NCBI GenBank assembly: GCA_012838135.1
Contig: DUPV01000060.1
Span: 22,498 to 86,497 of the forward strand
DNA length: 64,000 nucleotides
Source of the DNA: Clostridiaceae bacterium
GTDB taxonomy: Bacteria > Bacillota > Clostridia > Saccharofermentanales > DTU023
Direction of reading: 5' to 3'
The first letter of the stretch is position 1; each line of letters starts with the position of its first letter. Of the stretch, positions 10,857 to 22,678 are shown piece after piece. A program made the position numbers and the translations under genes. The notes below the pieces were generated by a model. The model ran no database searches and was not told the DNA's origin. It saw only the letters and a list, made by a program, of their open reading frames with translations.

Positions 10857-10948
10857 GGAAGCGTAGCGAAGATGGCCGTAACGCGCCGCACTCGAAATGC
10901 GGTTGTCCAGAGATGGGCACGTGGGTTCGAATCCCACCGCTTCCGCCA
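10857..10948 (+). tRNA. tRNA-Ser (anticodon CGA), class II with long variable arm and encoded CCA
   Basis: Acceptor GGAAGCG/CGCTTCC, anticodon stem ccgca/tgcgg with loop cTCGAaa, 6 bp variable-arm stem, T arm gtgggTTCGAATcccac, discriminator G plus CCA. Confidence 0.9.
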
Positions 10949-10951
10949 GAC

Positions 10952-10994
10952 AGGACATCATATTTTGATAGAATATGGTGTCCTTTTTCTTTTG
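10952..10994 (+). terminator. Rho-independent terminator after the tRNA
   Basis: aggacatcatatt / aatatggtgtcct forms a 13 bp stem with one G-U pair, followed by tttttctttt. Confidence 0.75.
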
Positions 10995-11103
10995 CTTAAA
11001 AGCGTTGATTTCAATCAACTTGAGGGTTTGAGATATAAAACAATCTGTTTCGAGGTCTTTTTCGGGACGGTTTTTTCTTGTTTTTGTTTTTTTTATATCC
11101 CTG

Positions 11104-11176
11104 CTTGAAATAAAGCGAGTGATGCAGCCATCTTATTTCAAGTTTAGTTGATAGATTGAAATAAGATGGCTATAAT
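11104..11176 (+). promoter_or_regulatory. Promoter embedded in a 16 bp perfect inverted repeat, upstream of fic
   Basis: -35 TTGATA (11148-53), 17 nt spacer, -10 TATAAT (11171-76). IR arms are AGCCATCTTATTTCAA (11126-41) and TTGAAATAAGATGGCT (11156-71). A third half-site cttgaaataa lies at 11104-13. Confidence 0.6.
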
Positions 11177-11211
11177 ATGATTGCTATTTCAATTAGAATG
11201 GAGACGCTGAT

Positions 11212-12354
11212 ATGAACAATCGAGCAGGATCATACAGAACGAACCTTTCCGGAGAGGCGGAGTACAAATCCTTTATACCGAATCCCCTGCCGCCAAAGCC
11301 TGAGGTGGAAATGAACAATGACATTGTCTCTTTGCTAGTAAAGGCGAATAGGATGATTTCAACCCTTGAGAGTATATCCTCAAGGATTCCCGATATGGAT
11401 CTGTTTATCTCCATGTATGTCAGAAAAGAAGCTCTGATGTCATCTCAGATTGAAGGAACGCAAGCAACGCTTGAAGACATCTTCGATCCGATGATTGAGA
11501 AGAATACCAATAGAAATGTGGCGGATGTCGTCAATTATATTAAAGCGACAGAATATGCGGTAAAAAGATTGAATACGCTTCCACTCTGCAACAGACTGAT
11601 TAAAGAAACACACGCGGTATTAATGGAAGATGTACGTGGACAGGAAAAGAGTCCCGGAGAGTTCAGGCGCTCTCAGAACTGGATCGGCGGTCAGGGCAGC
11701 ACATTGAAAAATGCCAGATATATTCCCCCGAATCCGGAGGATATGAATTCGGCTATGTCTGACCTCGAAAAATATATGAACGCCGAGGACGATTTGGACT
11801 TTCTTATCCGGGCAGCGCTGATTCATTATCAATTTGAAACTATTCACCCGTTCCTTGACGGAAATGGCAGAGTCGGACGTTTGCTGATTACCTTGTTTCT
11901 GATGGATAAGAAAGTTCTGACAACCCCGGCACTTTATATTTCTTATTTCCTAAAAAAGAACCGTGTAGAATATTATGACCGGATGACCGAGGTAAGACTC
12001 AAGGGAAATTATGAACAGTGGATCAGGTTCTTCCTCATGGCAATTGACGAGTCTGCACAAGATGCTATCGCAGCAATTGATGAAATAACAGCCTTGCAAG
12101 CCGAAAACCGCAAAAAAGTAAGCGCAATGGGCAGAGCATCGAAAAACGCACTGTTAGTATTTGAATATTTAGCGTCCCATCCGATTATTGACATTGGAAA
12201 GACGGCTGAAGCATTAGATGTTTCCTATAACACGGTTTCTGCTGCGGTAAAACGGTTTATGGATGCGGATATTCTCGTTCAAATGGAAAATATAAACAGG
12301 AACCGTACCTTTGCCTACAGAGATTATCTGGACATCCTACGTAAAGGAACTTGA
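11212..12354 (+). CDS. Fic/DOC family protein, AMPylase-type with intramolecular inhibitory motif
   Basis: Fic motif HPFLDGNGRVGR, upstream SSQIEG matching (S/T)xxxE(G/N), and a C-terminal wHTH-like region. Confidence 0.85.
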   Translation: MNNRAGSYRTNLSGEAEYKSFIPNPLPPKPEVEMNNDIVSLLVKANRMISTLESISSRIPDMDLFISMYVRKEALMSSQIEGTQATLEDIFDPMIEKNTNRNVADVVNYIKATEYAVKRLNTLPLCNRLIKETHAVLMEDVRGQEKSPGEFRRSQNWIGGQGSTLKNARYIPPNPEDMNSAMSDLEKYMNAEDDLDFLIRAALIHYQFETIHPFLDGNGRVGRLLITLFLMDKKVLTTPALYISYFLKKNRVEYYDRMTEVRLKGNYEQWIRFFLMAIDESAQDAIAAIDEITALQAENRKKVSAMGRASKNALLVFEYLASHPIIDIGKTAEALDVSYNTVSAAVKRFMDADILVQMENINRNRTFAYRDYLDILRKGT

Positions 12355-12545
12355 AATTAACAGAACAAAAAACGGAAGGCACAGGGGATTCCATCAGCGC
12401 CTTTATGTTTGAGCTGCACGAAACCGATGAGCCGGTCACGGAGTTCGACAATAAGCTTTGGATCTCGGTCATGGATAACGTGCTGATAAGGTCTGACGGA
12501 ACACTGGTCTTCAGGTTTAGAAATGGGATGAAGATTGAAGGATAA
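12351..12545 (+). pseudogene. C-terminal remnant of a large serine recombinase
   Basis: ..TEFDNKLWISVMDNVLIRSDGTLVFRFRNGMKIEG resembles the conserved extreme C-terminus of TndX-like large serine recombinases. No catalytic domain lies upstream, and the frame overlaps the fic stop. Confidence 0.55.
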
Positions 12546-12561
12546 TCTTTAATAACAAATG

Positions 12562-12590
12562 GGTGTCGGAATCAAATCCGGTACCTTTTT
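12562..12590 (+). terminator. Rho-independent terminator
   Basis: ggtgtcgga / tccggtacc forms a 9 bp stem with two wobble pairs, followed by ttttt. Confidence 0.5.
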
Positions 12591-12688: not shown

Positions 12689-12733
12689 TTGACATATGCC
12701 ATAAACGACGTATAATGAAAACAAATGGCATAT
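12689..12733 (+). promoter_or_regulatory. Promoter with a flanking 9 bp inverted repeat (candidate operator)
   Basis: TTGACA (12689-94), 16 nt spacer, TATAAT (12711-16). ATATGCCAT (12694-702) and ATGGCATAT (12725-33) bracket the -10 box. Confidence 0.6.
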
Positions 12734-12760
12734 CTCATAAACCATAAGGAGATGAATAGC

Positions 12761-12883
12761 GTGCCTGGAAGAGATGGAACTGACCCGGTAGGTGTCGGAG
12801 CGATTACCGGAAGAGGTTTAAGGAATAACCAGAGGGCACTCTGGTTATTCCTGTTTAGAGTGGAGGTGGTGTGTTATAGCTAG
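12761..12883 (+). pseudogene. Truncated DUF5320-like mini-ORF (40 codons)
   Basis: GTG lies 8 nt after AAGGAG. VPGRDGTDPVGVGAITGRG matches the N-terminal MPxxDGTGPxGxGPxTGRG signature of DUF5320 proteins. The rest is unrelated and contains a hairpin. Confidence 0.45.
12821..12852 (+). promoter_or_regulatory. Strong 14 bp hairpin in the leader between the promoter and the DUF134 gene
   Basis: aggaataaccagag / ctctggttattcct with loop ggca, followed only by a weak T tail (gttta). Confidence 0.45.
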
Positions 12884-12887
12884 ACCA

Positions 12888-13256
12888 ATGAAATGGAGAA
12901 GGGTTTGCCGTTTGCCTGAAAATAACAGGTTCGGTCCTCTTGATTTGCCCATTGATGCAGAAAACCATGTAACCATGACTGTAGATGAGTATGAAACCAT
13001 AAGACTTATTGATCAGGAAGGTTTTACTCAAGAAGAGTGTGCCAAGCAAATGAATATCGCTCGCAGCACCGTTCAAGGTATTTATATAGAAGCCAGAAAA
13101 AAATTGGCGAACTCCCTGGTAAACGGAAAAGTGTTGCTGATTGAAGGTGGTGAATATCGGCTTTGTGAAGGCTTGGGGAATGGTTGTGGGCGCGGCTGTC
13201 ATAGGCATAGGCGTGGTCGACGATTCATAAATGATGATGCGGACCGAGATAGTTGA
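12888..13256 (+). CDS. DUF134 (UPF0251) putative DNA-binding protein
   Basis: KWRRVCRLPENNRFGP..MTVDEYETIRLIDQEGFTQEECAKQMNIARSTVQ (sigma-70 region-4-like HTH). The conserved N-terminus continues upstream to an ATA codon at 12876, which is correctly spaced from GGAGGTG. Confidence 0.75.
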   Translation: MKWRRVCRLPENNRFGPLDLPIDAENHVTMTVDEYETIRLIDQEGFTQEECAKQMNIARSTVQGIYIEARKKLANSLVNGKVLLIEGGEYRLCEGLGNGCGRGCHRHRRGRRFINDDADRDS

Positions 13257-13260
13257 TTAT

Positions 13261-13458
13261 ATATATTCAGAAAAAGTGATTGAGCTTTTTATGTGTCCAT
13301 AAAATGCCTATAGCATGCCTGATGCGGATATCGAGAGAAACTGCGGGATTTGTCCTTCTTTGGATGGACTTCCTGAAAATAAAGTACATTGTTCAAACTT
13401 AGGTGTGAGTGCCCTACGAAACGCAATTGAAAATTATTTTAAAAAATGGCTCTGTTAA
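13261..13458 (+). pseudogene. Degraded NifU/IscU-like Fe-S scaffold gene
   Basis: IYSEKVIELFMCP*NA.. then ..KVHCSNLGVSALRNAIENYFKKW match the N- and C-terminal ends of IscU-type scaffolds. There is no ATG, an in-frame TAA at 13300-02, and the central ~70 codons are missing. Confidence 0.6.
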
Positions 13459-13512
13459 CTAAAGATGAATTTTTAAGTTAACAGAACATAAAAAATAGAA
13501 TGGAGAATTATT

Positions 13513-13881
13513 ATGAAAATAGCAATTCCGGCAGATGGGAAAAACATGGAATCGAATGTATGTGTATCCTTTGGTCGTGCTCCCTATTTTCTTATTTATG
13601 ATGTAGAAACCAAGAAAAGTATATTTATTAACAACAGTGCGGCGGCAAGCACAGGAGGTGCAGGGATTAAAGCTGCACAAATAATAGTGGATAGCAAAGC
13701 AAATGTTTTAATCACTCCCCGCTTAGGAGAGAATGCTGCTGATGTAATTAAATCTGCTGATATTAAAATCTATAAAACGATAGCTGGTTCAGTCAAAGAT
13801 AATATTGATGCTTTTACTGCAAATAAACTTTCTTTACTGAATGAAATCCATGCCGGGTTTCATGGACGAGAAGAAAATTAA
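13513..13881 (+). CDS. NifB/NifX-family (dinitrogenase FeMo-cofactor-binding fold) protein
   Basis: MKIAIPADG..VSFGRAPYFLIYD..GGAGIKAAQ is typical of the NifX/NifB-C family. Confidence 0.75.
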   Translation: MKIAIPADGKNMESNVCVSFGRAPYFLIYDVETKKSIFINNSAAASTGGAGIKAAQIIVDSKANVLITPRLGENAADVIKSADIKIYKTIAGSVKDNIDAFTANKLSLLNEIHAGFHGREEN

Positions 13882-13882
13882 T

Positions 13883-14746
13883 ATGAAAATAGCTGTACTA
13901 AGCGGCAAGGGAGGCACAGGAAAAACGCTGGTATCAGTGAATTTAGCTGCGGCAGCAAAAGCATCCACATATATAGACTGTGATGTCGAAGAACCGAACG
14001 GGCATTTGTTTTTTAAACCCGAAGGAGTTCAAGAGGAAAATGTAACTGTAAAAATTCCAAAAGCGGATGATAAATTATGCAATGCCTGTCGTAAATGCGT
14101 TGATTTTTGCAACTTTAACGCCCTTGCCCATGTTAAAGACAAGTTGATTGTCTTTGAGGAAGTTTGTCATTCTTGTGGTGGTTGTATTCTGGTCTGTCCT
14201 GAAAAAGCACTAACAGAGAGAGAAAAGGTTATCGGTAAAGTTCAAAAGGGGACCTCTGACCAAGTATCGATATACACAGGAATATTAAAGATCGGTGAAG
14301 CATCGGGGGTTCCGATCATTAAAAAGCTGCTTGATGAGAAAAATCCTAAAACAAATAAATTAACCATTATTGACTGTCCCCCTGGAAGCGCCTGTATTGT
14401 AATGGAAAGCATAAAAGATGTGGATTATTGTATTTTAGTAGCTGAGCCTACATTGTTCGGTGTACATAACCTCAACATGGTATATGAGCTGGTAACATTG
14501 TTAAATAAGCCGTTCGGAGTTGTCCTTAATAAATGTTTGTTGGAAGAAAAAAATCCGGCAGAAAAGTTTTGTATAGAAAAAAACATTAAGATTATAGAGC
14601 GAATTCCATTTGACAATGAGCTCGGAACGTTGAACTCAAACGGGGAAATTGCTGTTCATAAAAATGAAAAGTACCGAGAACTGTTTTCTTCTCTGCTTAA
14701 CACGGTGACAAAGGAAGTGTGGCATGAAACAACTATTAATCCTTAG
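13883..14746 (+). CDS. MinD/ParA-type P-loop ATPase with inserted 2x[4Fe-4S] ferredoxin domain
   Basis: Deviant Walker A GKGGTGKT, plus CNACRKCVDFC and CHSCGGCILVCP. Confidence 0.8.
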   Translation: MKIAVLSGKGGTGKTLVSVNLAAAAKASTYIDCDVEEPNGHLFFKPEGVQEENVTVKIPKADDKLCNACRKCVDFCNFNALAHVKDKLIVFEEVCHSCGGCILVCPEKALTEREKVIGKVQKGTSDQVSIYTGILKIGEASGVPIIKKLLDEKNPKTNKLTIIDCPPGSACIVMESIKDVDYCILVAEPTLFGVHNLNMVYELVTLLNKPFGVVLNKCLLEEKNPAEKFCIEKNIKIIERIPFDNELGTLNSNGEIAVHKNEKYRELFSSLLNTVTKEVWHETTINP

Positions 14747-15599
14747 CGGTAAAGGCGGTACCGGAAAAACGACAATAGCAAGCGCATTTATAAAACTTGC
14801 GGATGCCAAAGCATATGCAGATTGTGATGTGGACGCACCTAACCTGCACCTTATAGCCGGATGGGATGCTGAGCCGGAGAGAACAGACTATTATGGGCTG
14901 TCAAAAGCAGAAATACATCCGGAATTATGCACCCAATGCGGTCAGTGCCAACAAAATTGCCGCTTCGATGCTATTTCAATAGATGAGAACTACAAAGTCG
15001 ATCCTTTTTCGTGTGAAGGTTGTGGTGTTTGTGAGTATGTTTGTCCTGTAAATGCGATCACGCTGATCCCGTCAGTAGACGGTGAGCTGACTCTTTATTC
15101 GGACTCCGGAAGAGTTTTTTCCACAGCACAGCTTAAAATGGGTAGCGGTAACTCCGGATTGCTTGTTACAGAGGTGAAAAAGCGAATGAAGTCGGCAGCA
15201 GTTAATGCCGAACTGGCTATTATTGATGGCTCACCCGGAATAGGTTGTCCTATTATCGCATCACTCAGCGGTGTGGATATGGTTTTGATAGTCGCAGAAC
15301 CCTCTATATCAGGTATCAGCGATATGGAACGCATTATAAAAACAGCAACGAATTTCAGAATTAAGACAGCAGTATGTGTAAATAAATTCGATACGAATAT
15401 TGAAATTACAGAAAAAATAGAAAGCTTCTGTAATCAACAAGGTCTTGAGTTTATGGGTAGAATACCTTTTGACTCTAAGGCAGTAAAGGCTGTTAACAAC
15501 GGCCAAACCATTGCAGACATAGACTGCACATCGGGGACGGCGGTTAAAGAAGTTTATCACAACACAATGAAACTACTCCTTAAGAAAGTTGGTGCCTGA
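14724..15599 (+). CDS. Second MinD/ParA-type ATPase with a 2x[4Fe-4S] ferredoxin domain
   Basis: GKGGTGKT, plus CTQCGQCQQNC and CEGCGVCEYVCP. Overlaps the upstream paralogue by 23 nt. Confidence 0.8.
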   Translation: MKQLLILSGKGGTGKTTIASAFIKLADAKAYADCDVDAPNLHLIAGWDAEPERTDYYGLSKAEIHPELCTQCGQCQQNCRFDAISIDENYKVDPFSCEGCGVCEYVCPVNAITLIPSVDGELTLYSDSGRVFSTAQLKMGSGNSGLLVTEVKKRMKSAAVNAELAIIDGSPGIGCPIIASLSGVDMVLIVAEPSISGISDMERIIKTATNFRIKTAVCVNKFDTNIEITEKIESFCNQQGLEFMGRIPFDSKAVKAVNNGQTIADIDCTSGTAVKEVYHNTMKLLLKKVGA

Positions 15600-15602
15600 G
15601 TC

Positions 15603-16430
15603 ATGCTTATTAAAACTTTGGTTGAAAATACAACGATATCAAATGATTTTGGGAAAGAACATGGTCTTAGCCTGTATATAGAAACAGGGAAACATAAAAT
15701 ATTATTTGACGTGGGTGCAAGCGACTTGTTTCTGCAAAATGCAAAAAAACTTGATGTGAATATTGCTGATATTGACTTTCTTGTGATTTCGCATGGACAC
15801 TATGATCATGGCGGAGGGCTAAGAACATTTTTCAAAGAGAACACAAGAGCTGAAGTATTTGTACATCGACTCGCTTTTGGAAAACACTATGCTATTCGCT
15901 CGAATGATGAATTAGACTTTATAGGTCTTGCTGAAGAACTAAAACACAATAAACAAATCGTTTTCACCTCAGACCGCTTTTTTATCAACAGTAGAATTCA
16001 AGTTTTCTCGAATGTACTCCAAAGGGAGCCGCGCCTAAAATCAAACAATGGCTTGCTCAGAAAGCATGAGGTTCAGGGACAAATGCTAGATGATACATTT
16101 GCGCATGAACAACACCTTGTGATAGAGGAAGAAGGAACAATTCTATTGGTAACAGGCTGCGCTCATAATGGTATCATAAACATACTTGAGCATTTTTACA
16201 TGCTTAAGGGTCAAATGCCCGACTATGTGATAGGTGGATTCCACCTTTCCAGCCGTTCAGGCGGCGATGAAGACTCTGAAATGATAGATAGAATTGGTAA
16301 ATATCTAATGGGTACAAAAGCAAAGTTTTACACCTGCCACTGTACAGGTATCGAACCTTATAAAAGACTAAAAGCCAATATGGGTGACAACATTGACTAT
16401 CTGTCGACTGGAAACCAAATAAAAATTTAG
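15603..16430 (+). CDS. MBL-fold metallo-hydrolase
   Basis: Beta-lactamase-fold motif ISHGHYDHGGG, with later His/Cys ligands (GCAHNG, CHCTG). Confidence 0.7.
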   Translation: MLIKTLVENTTISNDFGKEHGLSLYIETGKHKILFDVGASDLFLQNAKKLDVNIADIDFLVISHGHYDHGGGLRTFFKENTRAEVFVHRLAFGKHYAIRSNDELDFIGLAEELKHNKQIVFTSDRFFINSRIQVFSNVLQREPRLKSNNGLLRKHEVQGQMLDDTFAHEQHLVIEEEGTILLVTGCAHNGIINILEHFYMLKGQMPDYVIGGFHLSSRSGGDEDSEMIDRIGKYLMGTKAKFYTCHCTGIEPYKRLKANMGDNIDYLSTGNQIKI

Positions 16431-16642
16431 TAACTAAGAAAACTACTAAATAAGTGGATGCGCATATGAAAGGGTTTAATACGTGTGCTTGAATTTAAAT
16501 TTTTGCAATTAGTGCGATGTTGGTAAACAGTTTTGGAATTTGTTCTATTCCCTGTTAAAACAAAGACCGGCATTGATATTATGTCCGTTAACTTGCTTAT
16601 AGAGCCGGTCGCGAAAATATTAAAAAAATGGAGGAAAACTAA

Positions 16643-17002
16643 ATGATTAAAATAGCAGTAGCAAGCGAAAATGATATGGTGACAGAGCATTTTGGACATT
16701 GTATAAACTTCAATATATTTGAAATCCAAAATGACCGAATTGTAAAGAGCGAGTCCATAGCAAATCCTGGACATAAGCCCGGATTTCTGCCAAACTTCCT
16801 GAATGATATGGGTGTGAATGTTGTTATATCAGGTGGTATGGGTGGTGGAGCCATCGATATTTTCAATGAGAAAGGGATCGAAGTAATTGTCGGTGCCAGT
16901 GGATATGCCAAAGCGGCTGCAGAAGCATATTTGGCAGGAACTTTAAAATCAACTGGTTCTATTTGCCATGAACATAAACACCACGATAAATGTGGAAATT
17001 AA
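16643..17002 (+). CDS. NifB/NifX-family protein, second copy
   Basis: MIKIAVASE..VTEHFGHC..GGMGGGAIDIF, with a C-terminal His/Cys-rich tail CHEHKHHDKCGN. Confidence 0.75.
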   Translation: MIKIAVASENDMVTEHFGHCINFNIFEIQNDRIVKSESIANPGHKPGFLPNFLNDMGVNVVISGGMGGGAIDIFNEKGIEVIVGASGYAKAAAEAYLAGTLKSTGSICHEHKHHDKCGN

Positions 17003-17300
17003 AATAATTCTTTTTTAGAGAGTTGTGTAAGTTCTGAGAAATAGAAATCACAGAGCGAAAAATAGAGAAAACAACTTCAAAACTCTATAGTTGGGTTGTG
17101 GGTTAGATGTTTTTAGCCTGCCGAGGCTGTACATTAGATGTTTTGATAGGTTATGGCTGTGGATAGATGGACCTGAAGTAAAAGTATAGATTAATTTGCA
17201 ATTTTATTGATTGCTTCATATGTTTATCTTGGTTTCGGGATATATAATATTGATGGGCAATCTTTATTCGGCCTCAATTTGTTTATATGGGGGTGTAATT

Positions 17301-17974
17301 GTGAAGTTACTATATGCCGAGGATGAATTGGCTCTATCCGAAGCAGTCGTAGATTATCTTACATATCATAAATATATCGTTGATGCCGTATATGACGGTG
17401 CTGATGCTTACGATTATGCCATATCCGGTGAATATGACGGCATCATTCTTGATATCATGATGCCAAAGTGTGATGGCTTGGAAGTTCTTTCTGCGCTTCG
17501 CAAAAATGGATGTAAAACACCTATACTTTTGTTAACTGCAAAAACACAGATAGAGGATCGGATTCGCGGTCTGGATATAGGTGCAGATGATTATCTGCCC
17601 AAGCCCTTTGACATGGGCGAGTTGATTGCAAGAATCCGCGCCATGCTGAGACGACGAGAAGAATTTCACCCTGATTTGATATGCTTTGGTGACTTAACGT
17701 TAAATATGAGTCCGGGGAAATATGTGTGAAAGATATTTCTTTTCAGTTGCCAAAGCAAGAATATCGTCTTATGGAGCAATTAATGCTGAATCATACGATG
17801 TATCTTTCCACGGAGGATTTACTTGTAAAAGCATGGGGTTATAACGCGGAAACAGATGTAAACAGCGTATGGTTATATATCTCATATTTACGGAAACGTC
17901 TTTCGGCAATTAACTCTAAGGTGAAGATTATCTCAAAACGGAATATTGGATATAAATTAGAGTTAAAGTCATGA
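17301..17974 (+). pseudogene. OmpR-family response regulator split by a frameshift
   Basis: The receiver domain (17301-17729) and winged-helix domain (17726-17974) lie in different frames. Adding one G to GGGG at 17714-17 restores ..NMSPGEICVKDISFQLPKQEY... The true start is probably GTG at 17301. Confidence 0.75.
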
Positions 17975-19191
17975 CGAAGACATTAAAAAAACGATTTATT
18001 ATATTCACAATGACGGCAGTTACTTGTCTTTTGGTATTTATTGTATTTGCTGTCAACGGACTTAATTGGATGATGCTGGAACGTCAATCCGATATGGTAA
18101 TGAAAATCCTTGTGGACTCTGATGGTGTCTTTAATAAGATGGATTTTAATCGTCCGCCGCCTTTCTCAAGACCGCTTGATATGGATAGAATGCGTTCTTC
18201 AAGATTCTTTATTGTTCTAAGTGATACAAACGGCAACATCATAGATGTAGATATTACTCAAATATCCTCGATAGATTACAAGACTGCAAAAAGCTATGCT
18301 TTGGCAGTATTAAAATCAGACAAAGAATCCGGACGGATGAACGGATATAAATTTGCCACAAAAAAGATGGGGCCGAATCAGCTTACATTTTTCATGGATA
18401 TGTCAGGGCAGAGCGAAAGCTTCTATAGAGTCTTGTTTGCTTCGGGTGCGATAGTGGCACTTTGCTGGCTTGTTCTCCTGATTATTGTTATTCTGCTTTC
18501 GGGCAAAGTTATTCATCCCGTTCTTATGGGCATGGAAAAGCAAAAGCAGTTTATAACCAACGCCGGCCATGAGATGAAAACGCCGCTTGCAATTATTCAA
18601 TCAAATAACGATACGATGGCACTCATTCACGGAGAGAACAAGTATAATGTCAATATTCGTACACAGACAAAAAGGCTTAACGTATTGATGTCGAACCTGC
18701 TGACACTCGCCAGGCTTGATGAGGAAATTCCTTTACAGGCGGAGCCGGTAAATGTAAGCGAAGTTACAACGAAAGTGCTTTCTGTCTATCAAGAGTATGC
18801 CGGGCTTCGCAATCTTCATTTTGATGTTAAGATTGAGCCTGATATTATTATATCGGTTAACAAAGACGGTTTTCGTCAGATTGTGACAATCCTTATGGAT
18901 AATGCTCTAAAGTACACCCCTGACAATGGATATATTAATTTGTCATTGGTTAGAAACGGCAGACATATTCAAATTATCGAAGAAAATACCTGTGACGTAT
19001 CTCTTGAGGCAGATCCGGAGAGACTGTTTGAAAGATTTTATCGTGGAGATGCCGCACGGACACAGAGTAAAGAATTCTCCGGTTACGGAATTGGTCTTTC
19101 CGCTGCCCGTGCAATTTGTGAGAATTTCGGCGGAAAGCTGACAGCGGAATACTCATCTTCAGAAAGTATCCGTTTTATTGCCCGATTTTGA
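17971..19191 (+). CDS. Sensor histidine kinase
   Basis: Two TM helices, H-box AGHEMKTPLA, and G-box GYGIGLS. Start/stop overlap with the regulator gene (ATGA). Confidence 0.85.
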   Translation: MTKTLKKRFIIFTMTAVTCLLVFIVFAVNGLNWMMLERQSDMVMKILVDSDGVFNKMDFNRPPPFSRPLDMDRMRSSRFFIVLSDTNGNIIDVDITQISSIDYKTAKSYALAVLKSDKESGRMNGYKFATKKMGPNQLTFFMDMSGQSESFYRVLFASGAIVALCWLVLLIIVILLSGKVIHPVLMGMEKQKQFITNAGHEMKTPLAIIQSNNDTMALIHGENKYNVNIRTQTKRLNVLMSNLLTLARLDEEIPLQAEPVNVSEVTTKVLSVYQEYAGLRNLHFDVKIEPDIIISVNKDGFRQIVTILMDNALKYTPDNGYINLSLVRNGRHIQIIEENTCDVSLEADPERLFERFYRGDAARTQSKEFSGYGIGLSAARAICENFGGKLTAEYSSSESIRFIARF

Positions 19192-20024: not shown

Positions 20025-20696
20025 ATGACTTTTAACGATATTTTCAAATCAAGCTTTCTGGAAAATGTATCTTCTATCAGCATTCTTGATATGCTGCTCA
20101 CCATCGTGCTGTCTTTCGGAATAGGTCTGTTTATCTTTCTCATATATAAGAAAACCTACCGTGGTGTTATGTATTCCACAGGCTTTGGCACAACACTAAT
20201 CGCCCTTACAATGATAACTTCCATCGTTATCCTTGCCGTAACTTCTGATGTTGTCTTGTCTCTCGGTATGGTCGGTGCGCTTTCCATCGTCCGCTTTCGT
20301 ACAGCAATTAAAGATCCTTTGGATATTGCGTTTTTGTTTTGGGCTATCGGTGCAGGTATTATCCTTGCGGCAGGCATGATTCCGCTGGCAATAATAGGCA
20401 GCGTATGTATCGGTCTGATTTTGTTGGTATTTATCAATCAAAGATCCCATACACATCCCTACATGGTTGTACTGAACTGTATAAATCATGATGCGGAATT
20501 GAAAGCCAAGGAATTTCTTGTAAAGAATGTAACCCGCACCACGGTAAAAAGTAAATCCGCTGTAAAGGGTGCGGTTGAAATGAACATTGAAGTTCGTCTC
20601 AAGGAGGATGACACAGATTTTATCAATATCCTCTCCGAAATGCCCGGTGTGAACAGCGCAGTTATAGTCTCCTATAATGGCGATTACATGGGGTAA
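20025..20696 (+). CDS. DUF4956 membrane protein
   Basis: Four to five TM helices. SLGMVGALSIVRFRTAIKDPLDIAFLFWAIGAGI is the DUF4956 signature. Confidence 0.75.
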   Translation: MTFNDIFKSSFLENVSSISILDMLLTIVLSFGIGLFIFLIYKKTYRGVMYSTGFGTTLIALTMITSIVILAVTSDVVLSLGMVGALSIVRFRTAIKDPLDIAFLFWAIGAGIILAAGMIPLAIIGSVCIGLILLVFINQRSHTHPYMVVLNCINHDAELKAKEFLVKNVTRTTVKSKSAVKGAVEMNIEVRLKEDDTDFINILSEMPGVNSAVIVSYNGDYMG

Positions 20697-22678
20697 GTCG
20701 ATGGCAGGAAGTAAACATTTTGATAAAATTGCATGGATAGTCACAGCCTTGATGTTGATCATCACCGTTCTGTTTATGTATGGCGGCGCTTTTGGCCTTG
20801 AAGTTATGGCGCGTACTATTGGATACGAAAATCGTCTGTTCGACAATACAAGGGTACATACCATTGATATTGTCATGAACAATTGGGACGAATTTATTGC
20901 AGATGCCACAAGTGAAGAATACTATCCTGCCGCTGTAGTGATTGACGGTGAAACTTATAGAAATATCGGTATACGGGGCAAGGGCAATACATCTCTTTCA
21001 ACGGTTTCTTCCATGAACAGCGACCGCTACAGTTTCAAGGTGGAGTTTGACCACTACGACAGCTCAATCACATATTATGGCCTTGATAAATTGAATTTGA
21101 ATAATTTAATTCAGGATTCCACAATGATAAAAGACTATCTTACCTACACCATGATGAAAGAGTTCGGTGCGGTGACTCCTCTATGTAGTTTCGTATACAT
21201 CACGGTCAACGGTGAGGACTGGGGATTATATCTAGCGGTAGAAGGTGTGGAAGACAGTTTTCTTGAAAGAAATTACGGTTCAAATTACGGTAAGCTGTAT
21301 AAGCCGGACAGCATGAGTTTTGGGGGCGGTCGTGGTCATGGTAAAGATTTCAATATGGAAGATTTTATGAATCGTGATAACCCGGATGAAAACACCGATA
21401 AATCTACTCAAGTCATGACCGTGCCGGAAATGCCGGATATGACTCAGACTGAATCTGATTTCAGAAAAAGAGATGATTTACCCCTTAGCGGTAGCAGGGG
21501 CGGATTCGGCAGCAGGGGGAGCTTCCGATGTGAAGTTACAGTATATAGATGACGATGCTGATAGTTATTCGAACATCTGGGAAAGTGCCAAAACCGATAT
21601 TACTACAGCCGACCGGATACGGCTCATTGAATCTTTGAAAAATCTGTCAAACGGCGAACAGATTGAATCGGTGGTAGATATTGAGCAAGTTATTCGTTAT
21701 TTTGTGGTACATAACTATGTTTGCAACGGAGACAGCTACACCGGGACTATGATTCATAATTACTATCTGTATGAAGAAAACGGGCAGATGGTGATGATTC
21801 CATGGGATTACAATCTGGCATTCGGTACTTTCCAAGGAGGAAATGCGCAGAGTACAATCAATACACCCATTGACTCCCCTATATCCGGCGGCTCTTCCAC
21901 TGACCGTCCGATGTGGAACTGGATTGTAGCAAATAAAGAATATACCGAACTGTACCATCAGTATTTTGAGGAGTTTTTTGATACAGTGGATATTGACGGA
22001 ATTATCAACAACACCTATAGTCTGATAAAATCTTATGTAGAAAAGGATCCGACATCATTCTATTCTTACGAGGAATTTAAAACAGGTATTAATACAATGC
22101 GGCAGTTTTGTACACTGCGTTCTGAATGCATATCCATGCAGCTTGAAAACAATGAAACTAAAAGCAATATGAGCTATGTGGACGGTTCCGAGCTTACATT
22201 GTCCGATATGGGTTCTATGGAGATGGGTGGTAGATTCGGTAGAAGCGGCATGCCGGATATGGGTGAAAATCAAGGTAGCTTAGGTGGGGAGATCCCAGAA
22301 GGCTTCAATCCTCCGCAGATGCCTGATGACTTTGGTGGTAACATCCCGGAAGGTTTCGATCCTTCGCAGATACCCGACGGCGAAATACCAAAAGGTTTTG
22401 ATCCTTCACAAATGCCCGGAGGATTTAACGGTAGATTCCCGGAGCAGTCGTTTGATGGAGCAGAAATAACACCTTCAGAAAATGAAAACCGAACAGATAT
22501 AAAGGGGAACGGCAACCGTTCTTCCCGCGACAATATGCAAATGCCCGGAGGCGATTTTAATTTCAATATAAACGGTATGGACAATCCTGATTCGAGTAGC
22601 ACAAACTTGATACCGCTCGTCGTATCCGTACTGATTCTTTGCGCGGGTTTAATCATTGCAAAAGCATATAAGTATTAA
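20677..22678 (+). pseudogene. CotH-family kinase-like protein, frameshifted
   Basis: The CotH core (RYSFKVEFD.., GLDKLNLNN, GKLYKPD) is in ORF 20677-21552 and continues (DVKLQYIDDDADSY..) in ORF 21473-22678. Removing one G from GGGGG at 21515-19 fuses them. N-terminal anchor and C-terminal TM helix are present. Confidence 0.75.

Follow-up and report, generated by a model that had tools for sequence, protein, structure and literature searches.

In Desulfovibrio, the proteins Orp3, Orp4, Orp5, Orp8 and Orp9 form a complex, and both Fe-S binding and the transfer of clusters from MrpORP to Orp3/Orp4 have been shown (PMC6345978). The regulator OrpR senses redox via a [4Fe-4S] cluster (PMC8359166). 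The corresponding gene order in D. alaskensis G20 (L082) is ORP, small protein, ATPase, ATPase, MrpORP. Here we compare with this system a cassette at positions 12689-17002 of a 64-kb stretch of DNA, which we refer to as the window.

The first-pass annotation had described the cassette as self-contained and uncharacterised, and as being in partial decay. All of the items it listed were found where it had placed them, as open reading frames and by Pfam and NCBIfam matches (Table 1), and we agree that they constitute a self-contained operon for handling metal-sulfur clusters, predicted to be a single sigma-70 operon. The cassette is not an orphan, however, because it is orthologous to and collinear with the Desulfovibrio orp cluster; profile searches of the reading frames and their neighbourhoods led to this already known system, which removes part of the earlier reading. 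We consider it probable that the cassette represents the Firmicute type of the ORP cluster described in Desulfovibrio, in a copy that has been cut down to its core, has lost its helpers and is horizontally mobile.

Table 1. Features of the cassette and its upstream border (positions in the window).
Feature	Position	Strand	Remarks
Large serine recombinase, C-terminal remnant	12345..12545	+	~65 codons; directly upstream of cassette
Sigma-70 promoter	12689..12716	+	TTGACA-16 nt-TATAAT, 12/12 consensus
Palindromic box 1, TGACATATGCCA	12690..12701	+	12 bp; overlaps -35 hexamer; candidate operator
DUF5320 remnant mini-ORF	12725..12883	+	likely start GTG 12761
Palindromic box 2, TGGCATATCTCA	12726..12737	+	one mismatch; directly 3' of -10 hexamer; candidate operator
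Conserved 14-bp stem-loop	12821..12852	+	RNA element between DUF5320 and DUF134
DUF134 (UPF0251) HTH protein	12876..13256	+	Pfam E 3e-19
IscU/NifU-type scaffold pseudogene	13291..13458	+	start 13291
NifX1, single-domain Nitro_FeMo-Co	13513..13881	+	Pfam E 5e-22; MTH1175/ORP type
ATP1, MinD-class deviant Walker A ATPase	13883..14746	+	inserted 2x[4Fe-4S] ferredoxin domain
ATP2, MinD-ferredoxin ATPase	14724..15599	+	paralogous to ATP1
MBL-fold protein	15603..16430	+	Pfam Lactamase_B; accessory gene
Mrp/NBP35 gene wreck	16431..16642	+	212-bp "spacer" between MBL and NifX2
NifX2, stand-alone Di-Nase domain	16643..17002	+	Nitro_FeMo-Co, Pfam E 2e-21; MrpORP type

The order in the window is NifX1, ATP1, ATP2, (MBL), Mrp remnant, NifX2. 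NifX1 matches the solved structures 1eo1 (6e-19), 1rdu (5e-18) and D. gigas ORP (2wfb, 3e-12), is 33% identical to G20 ORP (E 2e-15), and is the predicted counterpart of ORP/Orp8. ATP1 (287 aa from its most likely start at 13883, with which the GenBank record agrees; an alternative start lies at 13841) and ATP2 each carry GKGGTGKT, CxxCxxCxxxC and CxxCxxCxxxCP, and the ferredoxin cysteines are invariant both in 70 homologues of ATP1 (8/8) and in 80 of ATP2. Their best reciprocal partners in G20 are ATPase-316 (34% identity, E 7e-60) and ATPase-308 (37% identity, E 4e-68) respectively; judged by sequence, ATP1 and ATP2 are the counterparts of Orp3/Orp4, the first and second ATPases of the G20 orp cluster. 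They had been taken for cluster carriers of the Mrp/MinD type, yet they are not Mrp-type, but MinD-class with a ferredoxin insert, as are Orp3 and Orp4, which in Desulfovibrio receive clusters. We also rejected them as the cassette's Mrp carrier, the real gene for which has been deleted here.

NifX2 matches positions 265-365 of the NCBIfam MrpORP model (112 bits) and is 42% identical to the C-terminus of G20 MrpORP (E 4e-20), and its motifs HFGHC, NPGHxPGFLP and C-terminal CHEHKHHDKC (tail, CHEHKHHDKCGN) agree with those described for MrpORP (PMC6345978). It appears to be the counterpart of the MrpORP C-terminal domain. MrpORP would be split here into two halves, NifX2 with the NifX fold and, with the P-loop, probably the wreck that precedes it. 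Overlooked previously, this region is not the mere spacer it resembles, since an Mrp/NBP35 remnant is recognisable by comparison with relatives: ∼35 codons survive (codons 95-117 and the last ∼12), 16603 marks a deletion of ∼450 bp, and ∼130 bp of unalignable sequence stand in place of the 5' third. The intact Mrp of the related locus L013 scores 347.5 bits on positions 1-246 of NCBIfam MrpORP and, when joined to NifX2, 461.4 bits across the whole profile, for which the cut-off is 450 bits. Identity to the Desulfovibrio proteins is low (33-42%), which counts against the ORP-cluster reading, and the G20 cluster is without counterparts of the window's DUF134, MBL and IscU. The MBL protein carries HGHYDHGGG and the conserved motifs CAHNG and CHC; the structures it matches, 2p4z (7e-38) and TM1679 (3h3e, 6e-24), are of proteins of which neither has a known function.

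Genome matches numbered at least 547, and from these we fetched 80 related loci, many of them from metagenome-assembled genomes whose phylum labels may be wrong. The same set of genes is found, with its order unchanged, in these 80 loci, arguing that the grouping is not due to chance. Among the 55 loci that were fully visible, NifX1-ATP1-ATP2 is present in every one, whereas four other genes are often absent or fragmentary: IscU is missing from 33, Mrp from 22 and DUF5320 from 19, and MBL is present in 25. Given that architectures lacking IscU or Mrp are common, the losses in the window have hit dispensable genes, and the window copy appears to be pared down to the core shared by all relatives.

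The partial decay reported earlier is borne out by breakpoints in DUF5320, IscU and Mrp, all of which are encoded in full at L013. The IscU pseudogene is interrupted by TAA at its fourth codon (13300-13302) and lacks approximately codons 26-77, an internal deletion that has removed the central Cys ligand. Its recognisable C-terminal fragment (13315-13458; E 6e-6) covers profile positions 88-124 of 127 of NifU_N; the intact L013 homologue is 124 aa long and scores 105.8 bits. The DUF5320 match of the mini-ORF is weak when considered alone (Pfam E 0.0095, profile positions 2-20 of 99 only), and our assignment is made because relatives bear a DUF5320 protein of 92-104 aa in the matching position, one intact example scoring 100.8 bits. 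Comparison with L013, L009 and L007 places the breakpoint after ∼20 genuine N-terminal codons, where a deletion of ∼230 bp has fused the gene to the downstream intergenic hairpin; the conserved Cys has been lost along with the Gly/Arg repeats and coiled coil. The hairpin itself is still intact; RNAalifold on 32 loci gives 13 pairs, 7 with compensatory double changes, and it has no match in Rfam. DUF5320 can be equated only tentatively with Orp5, a small [2Fe-2S] protein: profile comparison with the 89-aa small protein of G20 gave 4% probability, and the sole positive hint is the N-terminus of DVU2105, MPYGDGT, as read from a published primer. Erosion has thus struck DUF5320 together with IscU and Mrp, by which the cassette appears to have supplied its own Fe-S clusters, and these same three genes have been lost repeatedly among the related loci.

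The first-pass annotation had the regulatory and the scaffold half eroding together. This holds for the scaffold, IscU, but not for the regulatory half, because no protein of the cassette is better conserved than DUF134 (91% identity to L013) and the promoter and candidate operators are intact. DUF134 carries an HTH resembling sigma-70 region 4 (Pfam), has a dN/dS of 0.04-0.08 and shares five invariant cysteines with its relatives (11, 55, 97, 104 and 108 in L013 numbering). Its sole blemish is the change of the ancestral ATG at 12876 to ATA; the next in-frame ATG is four codons on at 12888, and the GenBank record gives a protein of 126 aa. The promoter is conserved across 29 aligned related loci, as are the palindromes. 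Across 792 kb of related loci, TGRCATATGYCA has 71 exact matches, every one of them at the cassette promoter (chance expectation, 0.19), and boxes 1 and 2 are the only palindrome matches in the window. DUF134 is a putative Cys-rich sensor-repressor that would act on the consensus promoter via the two 12-bp palindromes, which cover the -35 hexamer and roughly +1 respectively, with an Fe-S, redox or metal signal as its trigger. Such a role parallels that of OrpR. The sigma-54 promoter, OrpR and IHF logic of the Desulfovibrio system are all absent from the window cassette, which also counts against the ORP-cluster reading.

The cassette moves horizontally, several times adjoining large serine recombinases: nucleotide identity reaches 99.2-99.9% over 8.4-10.8 kb between isolates from two clostridial families, one belonging to Herbinix (Lachnospiraceae) and the other to Thermoclostridium (Oscillospiraceae). 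Flanking genes vary from locus to locus, and serine recombinases adjoin the cassette in 8 loci, full-length ones (Resolvase, Recombinase and Zn_ribbon_recom) occupying the equivalent position in L013, L017, L031 and L033. The remnant in the window resembles the C-terminal end of the L013 recombinase (34% identity across its final 50 residues, E 5e-11; tblastn, BLASTP).

The window cassette sits in a decaying island, and this raises the possibility that it is wholly a non-functional leftover whose open reading frames have simply not yet been hit. Four lesions within 4.3 kb, the recombinase remnant upstream, an adjoining tRNA-Ser gene with a shift in GC, and a downstream response regulator and CotH-like gene, each split by frameshifts, are all in keeping with such a relic. 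We nevertheless think it unlikely, as NifX1, ATP1, ATP2, MBL, NifX2 and DUF134 add up to ∼1,300 codons uninterrupted by any stop, no conserved Cys or His ligand is missing, and dN/dS in five intact reading frames is 0.04-0.29, pairwise values that mirror long-term rather than recent selection. The perfect consensus promoter, candidate operators and hairpin are also kept, and the losses are confined to the dispensable genes noted above.

We find it improbable that the cassette is a storage or mobilisation device resembling IssA, in which the NifX-fold proteins and a Gly/Arg-rich DUF5320 would hold anionic Fe-S or Mo/W/Cu-sulfide while the ATPases load or release it. MTH1175, the best solved relative of NifX1 (6e-19), is the protein on which IssA was modelled, and the cationic Gly/Arg/Trp tail by which IssA binds thioferrate (PMC5524996) recalls the GRGFGRGF-type repeats of which DUF5320 is made in relatives. 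ORP, moreover, binds a Mo-Cu-sulfide cluster non-covalently (PMC6345978), and metal transporters occur in or beside the cassette (ZIP, inside, at 4 loci; P1B-ATPase at 7; ChrA at 3). However, these associations are a heterogeneous minority, a cationic tail is lacking in NifX1, many loci dispense with DUF5320 and the window copy of it is destroyed, and the link between ATPases and storage is without experimental support.

Nor do we favour a dedicated maturation factor for one complex metalloenzyme encoded elsewhere in the genome (a hydrogenase, CODH or radical-SAM enzyme, for example), which seems to us doubtful. This is the "unknown client" of the first-pass annotation, and by analogy with NifX, NafY and NifH, the combination of NifX-fold carriers, SIMIBI-class Fe-S ATPases, scaffold and carrier mirrors the logic of nitrogenase cofactor assembly; a radical-SAM gene is even embedded in one variant of the cassette (L031, L032). 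Against this, no recurrent client gene lies beside the cassette in 80 loci, the OrpR regulon of D. vulgaris is restricted to the orp operons (PMC8359166), and no nitrogenase, hydrogenase or radical-SAM genes were found within the window, the earlier remark on nitrogenase holding for all reading frames of at least 180 aa.

A device positioning the septum from the membrane or pole, the role originally suggested for the ORP complex, is very improbable here: despite the morphological defects of D. vulgaris on loss of orp expression, the polar location of MrpORP (PMC6345978, PMC8359166), the closeness of the ATPase domains to MinD, ParA and CooC and their moderately amphipathic C-terminal segments, these C-termini are not conserved, MinD equivalog models score far below cut-off (49.5 vs 212.9 bits), a MinC/MinE partner is absent, and a core division function would hardly be expected of a mobile cassette whose content varies.

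On the reading that we prefer, a reduced ORP cluster, ATP1 and ATP2 would form an ATP-dependent sandwich heterodimer holding four [4Fe-4S] clusters, and this would associate with NifX1 and NifX2 as holders of a labile metal-sulfur cluster. Loading, which falls to MrpORP in Desulfovibrio, would here be performed by the general ISC/SUF machinery of the host. With four lesions and frameshifted neighbours, the operon in its entirety may be in the course of being lost. The cassette is a regulatory and architectural variant of an already known system, and gives a clostridial version of an ORP set known from sulfate-reducing bacteria.

All of the items described by the first-pass annotation at 12689-17002 (+) were confirmed by ORF, Pfam and NCBIfam analysis, and they are collected in the table below. 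The interpretation placed on them, that of an uncharacterised metallocluster-handling cassette in partial decay, is supported only in part: the cassette is a reduced copy of the known ORP system (the orange protein system of Desulfovibrio), of which it is a regulatory and architectural variant, and not a new pathway. Profile searches and a check of gene neighbourhoods assign its ORFs to an ORP-type cluster.

Features of the cassette and its leader, in window coordinates
Feature	Position	Strand	Basis or remark
Terminator-like hairpin ending the preceding unit	12561-12586
Sigma-70 promoter, TTGACA-16 nt-TATAAT	12689-12716	+	Perfect consensus
Stem-loop, 14 bp, between DUF5320 and DUF134	12821-12852		Covariation
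DUF134	12888-13256	+	Pfam E 3e-19; sigma-70 region 4-like HTH
NifU_N C-terminal fragment (IscU wreck)	13315-13458	+	Pfam/NCBIfam
NifX1, Nitro_FeMo-Co protein	13513-13881	+	Pfam/NCBIfam
ATP1, P-loop ATPase with GKGGTGKT and two ferredoxin Cys motifs	13841/13883-14746	+
ATP2, paralogue of ATP1 with GKGGTGKT and two ferredoxin Cys motifs	14724-15599	+
MBL-fold protein with HGHYDH	15603-16430	+
NifX2, Nitro_FeMo-Co protein	16643-17002	+

The window derives from a third-party MAG labelled Clostridiaceae bacterium, and in GenBank the cassette proteins stand under generic names (HHT25297-25303), with ATP1 at 287 aa (start 13883) and DUF134 at 126 aa. The DUF5320-like ORF, of 52 aa, matches Pfam over the first 20 profile positions only (E 0.0095), and its identity was confirmed through its relatives. 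The statement that the window has no nitrogenase genes holds for its ORFs of at least 180 aa, and the same set contains neither hydrogenase nor radical-SAM genes, which had been named as possible clients; the other genes near the cassette are housekeeping and two-component genes. Rfam returned nothing at gathering level across the whole window and nothing at E<=1 within 12.5-17.3 kb, and on this basis we rejected the idea that the leader or a spacer contains a riboswitch or other known RNA.

The ORP complex is conserved and anaerobe-specific, its proteins bind Fe-S and Mo-Cu clusters, and it has been a puzzle since 2011 (Fievet 2011). [quoted passage not shown] Complex formation, Fe-S binding and this MrpORP-to-Orp3/Orp4 transfer have been shown for the Desulfovibrio homologues, and the regulator, OrpR, is a PAS-type sigma-54 activator with a redox-sensitive [4Fe-4S] cluster that acts with IHF (PMC6345978; PMC8359166).

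The D. alaskensis MrpORP, rebuilt from the supplement of PMC6345978, was found in the protein collection, and its locus in strain G20 (L082) runs in the order OrpR, a 142-aa protein, ORP (119 aa), an 89-aa protein, ATPases of 316 and 308 residues, and MrpORP. BLASTP paired the G20 proteins cleanly, and in collinear order, with best partners: ATPase-316 with ATP1 (34% identity, 7e-60) and ATPase-308 with ATP2 (37%, 4e-68), both reciprocally, and G20 ORP with NifX1 (33%, 2e-15). The N-terminus of G20 MrpORP is likewise paired with the Mrp protein of L013, an intact relative, at 37%, and its C-terminus with NifX2 at 42%. On the NCBIfam MrpORP equivalog (NF041136), NifX2 covers the C-terminal domain with 112 bits (cut-off 450); the L013 Mrp and NifX2 joined together cover the whole profile with 461.4 bits, and therefore pass the cut-off, from which we conclude that the ancestral cassette had MrpORP as a split gene. 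NifX2 also carries the HFGHC, PGHxPG and C-terminal Cys/His motifs of the Di-Nase domain stressed in PMC6345978, save that Thr replaces the first Cys of CxHFGHC. Among solved structures, NifX1 matches the D. gigas ORP 2wfb at 3e-12, with MTH1175 and TM1290 somewhat closer, and NifX2 matches TM1816 and PH0822; none was found for the MinD-ferredoxin ATPases or for DUF134. In the literature searched on COG1149, COG1433, COG1342 and UPF0251/DUF134 the cassette is not treated, save for a note on C. difficile CD2169.

The cassette thus shares with the ORP systems of D. vulgaris Hildenborough and D. alaskensis G20 an ORP-type protein, paired MinD-ferredoxin ATPases and the Mrp/NBP35 and Di-Nase parts, in like order. 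ATP1 and ATP2 are the two adjacent MinD-type ATPases with two [4Fe-4S] ferredoxin motifs each, and NifX1 is the single-domain Orp8-type protein 5' of them. Both systems occur in anaerobes only, and both have, encoded locally, a dedicated regulator that is probably Cys-based and would act at palindromic sites. Identity to the Desulfovibrio proteins is only 33-42%. The cassette is one operon rather than two divergent orp operons (G20 likewise has a single direction), and in place of sigma-54, OrpR and IHF it has a sigma-70 consensus promoter and DUF134; no enhancer-binding protein gene was found in the window. It has IscU and MBL in addition, and DUF5320 instead of the small Orp5/Orp7. MrpORP is split into two genes in the relatives, and in the window the functional P-loop half is deleted, leaving only NifX2. 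Clostridial Mrp proteins (L013 7721-8560 and 40 homologues) have an N-terminal CX3CX2CX3C motif, and CPDxG at the site where MrpORP and other characterised Mrp/NBP35 proteins have the [4Fe-4S]-bridging CxxC.

DUF5320, truncated in the window, is Gly/Arg-rich with conserved Cys and occupies a place comparable to that of the Orp5 gene. We rejected homology to the G20 89-aa protein, given an hhalign probability of 4% and no Pfam match in the latter. The N-terminus of DVU2105, MPYGDGT as read from a published primer, agrees with the N-terminal motif of DUF5320; in the D. vulgaris orp3-5 operon, the single contig recovered with DVU2109 stops short of DVU2105.

The complete version in L013 comprises two large serine recombinases, DUF5320 (100.8 bits; 92 aa counted from MPRRDGTGP), DUF134 (125 aa, beginning MARPMKW), an IscU-type scaffold with its full set of three Cys ligands (124 aa, 105.8 bits), NifX1, ATP1, ATP2, MBL, Mrp/NBP35 (279 aa) and NifX2, and its proteins are 76-91% identical to those of the window. 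Nucleotide alignment of the window to L013 and five other loci mapped four lesions. In DUF5320, ~230 bp are deleted at about 12822, joining codon ~20 to the intergenic hairpin downstream, and the 3' end of the deletion falls exactly on the 5' edge of the stem-loop. The ancestral start of DUF134 is now ATA (12876-12878), with an in-frame ATG four codons on, a change also present in the related locus L002. In IscU, CAA has become TAA at codon 4 (13300-13302), and an internal deletion of roughly 50 codons takes out the central Cys ligand. At 13291-13458 there is no full scaffold (~120 aa, Cys ligands CGD, GC and HC); HC is the only ligand in open frame and the fragment scores 31.6 bits against a cut-off of 187.9. 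Judged by its sequence, 13291-13458 is an IscU/NifU pseudogene. In Mrp, the 5' third has given way to about 130 bp that cannot be aligned, and ~450 bp are absent at 16603; what had been treated as a spacer upstream of NifX2 is, by these alignments, the remnant of this gene, a wreck of ~35 codons within 16536-16642 whose only recognisable parts are FPVKTKTGIDIMSVNLL and EPVAKIL. Three JGI contigs (L001, L085 and L086) are 100% identical to the window and, as they may share its sample, are not independent support for the lesions.

NifX1, ATP1, ATP2, MBL, NifX2 and DUF134 are all open frames in the window, and the six proteins retain all the Cys and His residues that proved invariant in 33-80 homologues. 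Compared pairwise with eight relatives, DUF134 has a dN/dS of 0.04-0.08, ATP1, ATP2 and MBL of 0.08-0.14, and NifX1 of 0.16-0.29; for NifX2, dS is saturated and hence gives no ratio. The claim that the regulatory half of the cassette is eroding therefore fails for DUF134 and the promoter, since DUF134 is open, keeps its ligands and has a low dN/dS, and the promoter is a perfect consensus. The dS to the same relatives is uneven along 13513-17002 (NifX1 0.33-0.56, the ATPases about 0.7-1.2, NifX2 saturated), which points to a mosaic history through recombination.

A scan with ATP2 over one genome per species gave at least 547 matching stretches. In the best 80 of these loci, ATP2 is 69-83% identical to that of the window, and tblastn with all window proteins found gene set and order conserved. 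Modularity was counted in the 55 related loci visible in full. NifX1, ATP1 and ATP2 are each present in 55/55, NifX2 is complete in 52 and partial in one, and DUF134 is found in 53 (12 of them partial by coverage). DUF5320 is complete in 30 loci and partial in six, Mrp complete in 29 and partial in four, and MBL complete in 21 and partial in four, while for IscU the remnants equal the intact genes in number (11/55 each). These loci form a natural deletion series, setting a constant core of NifX1, the two ATPases, NifX2 and DUF134 against dispensable IscU, Mrp, MBL and DUF5320, and the loss counts make the window pattern one among many reduced forms. Other variants have an added radical-SAM gene, a ZIP transporter within the operon, or a C_GCAxxG_C_C domain fused to NifX2; in the Oscillospiraceae MAG JAGPMA01 the cassette occurs on five contigs. 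That the window copy is a dead relic seems to us rather unlikely, given that its core is intact and conserved and that matching reduced architecture is frequent elsewhere.

A second possibility is that the cassette is an Fe-S or thiometallate store like IssA of Pyrococcus furiosus, a thioferrate store (PMC5524996). NifX1 shares with IssA the IPR003731/Nitro_FeMo-Co fold of MTH1175 type, and a setting rich in Fe-S and sulfide. It lacks the cationic Gly/Arg/Trp tail of IssA, ending instead in a short His-rich HAGFHGREEN (NifX2 ends in a His/Cys tail), and IssA has no known partnership with MinD-ferredoxin ATPases; we regard a storage role as improbable. That DUF5320 could supply the cationic tail in trans is only an idea.

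We give a similarly low probability to the cassette being the dedicated maturase of an unlinked enzyme. As with NifX, NafY, the NifB C-terminus and NifH in nitrogenase cofactor assembly, NifX-fold proteins that would carry labile complex clusters go together with an IscU/NifU scaffold and with Fe-S ATPases of the deviant Walker A kind, here predicted to dimerise. It differs from nif assembly in that its ATPases have ferredoxin inserts, not the bridging NifH cluster, and in having no nitrogenase genes; no nif genes were found in the window, and scores of about 17.4 bits, against cut-offs of 112 (TIGR02663) and 343.65 (TIGR01290), place its proteins outside NifX and NifB.

A MinD-like division device is highly improbable: ATP1 and ATP2 share the deviant Walker A GKGGxGK[ST] and its signature lysine with MinD, ParA and CooC (SIMIBI), and the closest solved structures for the ATPase part are 4v03, 1hyq, 6non and 3kje, but they have a 2x[4Fe-4S] domain inserted after the P-loop and extra conserved Cys (DCD, PGxxC), and they score only 49.5 and 44.3 bits against MinD cut-offs of 212.9 and 201.75 (TIGR01968/TIGR01969). 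Hydrophobic-moment values for a possible MinD-type C-terminal membrane-targeting helix are unremarkable. Nor are ATP1 and ATP2 members of Mrp/NBP35 (ApbC). Matches to PF10609 are partial (45.7 and 35.4 bits, in two short stretches), scores on the MrpORP/ApbC models are 41-45 bits against a cut-off of 450, and there is no bridging CxxC at the position after Walker B.

Across 29 aligned loci the promoter takes the form GTTATTGACATATGcCAtAAAC - N - GTATAAT - N7 - ATGgCATATGyCA, and hence contains two copies of a 12-bp palindrome, TGRCATATGYCA, one over the -35 hexamer and the other at about +1. These two boxes are the only matches in the 64-kb window, a count that is weak alone, since 16/100 shuffles also give two. 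Related loci totalling 792 kb contain 71 exact copies, every one of them at a cassette promoter and none in the flanks, with 0.19 expected by chance. DUF134, with five invariant cysteines, suggests itself as the candidate Cys-cluster repressor of the operon that encodes it, and its regulon would be as narrow as that of OrpR. Some loci (L039, L040 and L065) have no DUF134 or DUF5320 in cis; in L039 (4700-4800) the promoter and both palindromes lie immediately 5' of NifX1, which implies regulation in trans. The stem-loop between DUF5320 and DUF134 shows compensatory changes in 7 of its 13 predicted pairs across 32 loci. It has a conserved GACG-type loop, no U-tract and no Rfam match.

The genes flanking the cassette vary between loci. 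Among those that recur, serine recombinases turn up in 8 loci, P1B metal ATPases in 7, rubrerythrin-type proteins in 4-5, and NifS and flavodiiron proteins in 3 each; a Crp/ferredoxin-membrane/cupin trio also recurs. Over 8.4-10.8 kb, the cassette included, nucleotide identity reaches 99.2-99.9% between isolates of Herbinix hemicellulosilytica (Lachnospiraceae), Clostridium sp. N3C and Thermoclostridium caenicola (Oscillospiraceae), a near-identity that evidently reflects recent transfer. The shared stretch (L030-L032) carries a serine recombinase, a radical-SAM gene, two DUF5320 genes, the ZIP transporter in the operon, the C_GCAxxG_C_C-NifX2 fusion and two chrA genes. ATP2 matches just three plasmid records, each of them non-mobilizable and as large as a megaplasmid or chromosome, and on these we rejected carriage by small plasmids; it is therefore adjacency to recombinases and near-identity across genera that make the case for mobility. 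That the ORP system spreads horizontally has been proposed before (PMC8359166). Nucleotide homology between loci runs from the promoter to the NifX2 stop codon in nearly all of them; we do not claim these as defined ends of a mobile element, given that at about 80% identity the non-coding flanks may simply have diverged.

In the window, 10857-12545 holds a tRNA-Ser (CGA), then a Fic-family gene, then a C-terminal serine recombinase remnant (64 aa, E 5e-11) whose start is overlapped by the Fic stop. The GC content climbs from 0.33-0.37 to 0.40-0.42 across 12-24 kb, and the region probably marks the border of an integrated element. Beyond the cassette, an OmpR-type response regulator (17211-17974) is split into receiver and Trans_reg_C ORFs by a frameshift next to a GGGG run (about 17705-17725), with the partner histidine kinase (17971-19191) intact, and a CotH-like gene (20677-22678) forms two overlapping ORFs, split at a GGGGG run (21515). 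Taken with the recombinase remnant and the lesions in the cassette, this suggests that the 12-23 kb stretch is a decaying island; alternatively, the splits may be assembly errors at G-runs. The G20 orp cluster (L082 1-12000) lies between dfx-rub-roo (oxygen defence) and cydAB (cytochrome bd oxidase), and genes of rubrerythrin or flavodiiron type adjoin the cassette in several clostridial loci. Such neighbours may link the ORP system to redox stress.

What this analysis shows directly is the orthology, the conservation of the ligands, the pattern of deletions and the conserved architecture of the promoter. In the mechanism we propose, DUF134 would repress through the palindromes and sense an Fe-S, redox or metal signal; ATP1 and ATP2 would pair as a sandwich heterodimer of the deviant-Walker-A kind, holding four [4Fe-4S] clusters; NifX1 and NifX2 would hold labile metal-sulfur species; and in the reduced window copy the general Fe-S machinery of the host would stand in for the lost IscU and Mrp. 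The fuller reading that we would put forward, in its entirety little more than a conjecture, is of a mobile, self-regulated module with NifX1-ATP1-ATP2-NifX2 as its minimal unit under a Cys-cluster DUF134 repressor, serving ATP-driven holding and release of an anionic metal-sulfide. DUF5320 would be a detachable IssA-like cationic partner, the module's own IscU and Mrp supply would be dispensable because host ISC/SUF can feed the unit, and the window would hold a minimised but still functional copy.

The message from the window itself is modest, and its main value is as a handle on the ORP question. Many clostridial genes whose sole annotation is "4Fe-4S binding protein", "dinitrogenase iron-molybdenum cofactor protein" or "DUF134" are now tied to the ORP system. 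A simple sigma-70 promoter whose two palindromes are exclusive to it, together with a putative Cys-rich repressor, is far easier to dissect than sigma-54, OrpR and IHF, and with cultivable carriers in C. tyrobutyricum, Herbinix and Thermoclostridium, genetics could probe the proposed roles.
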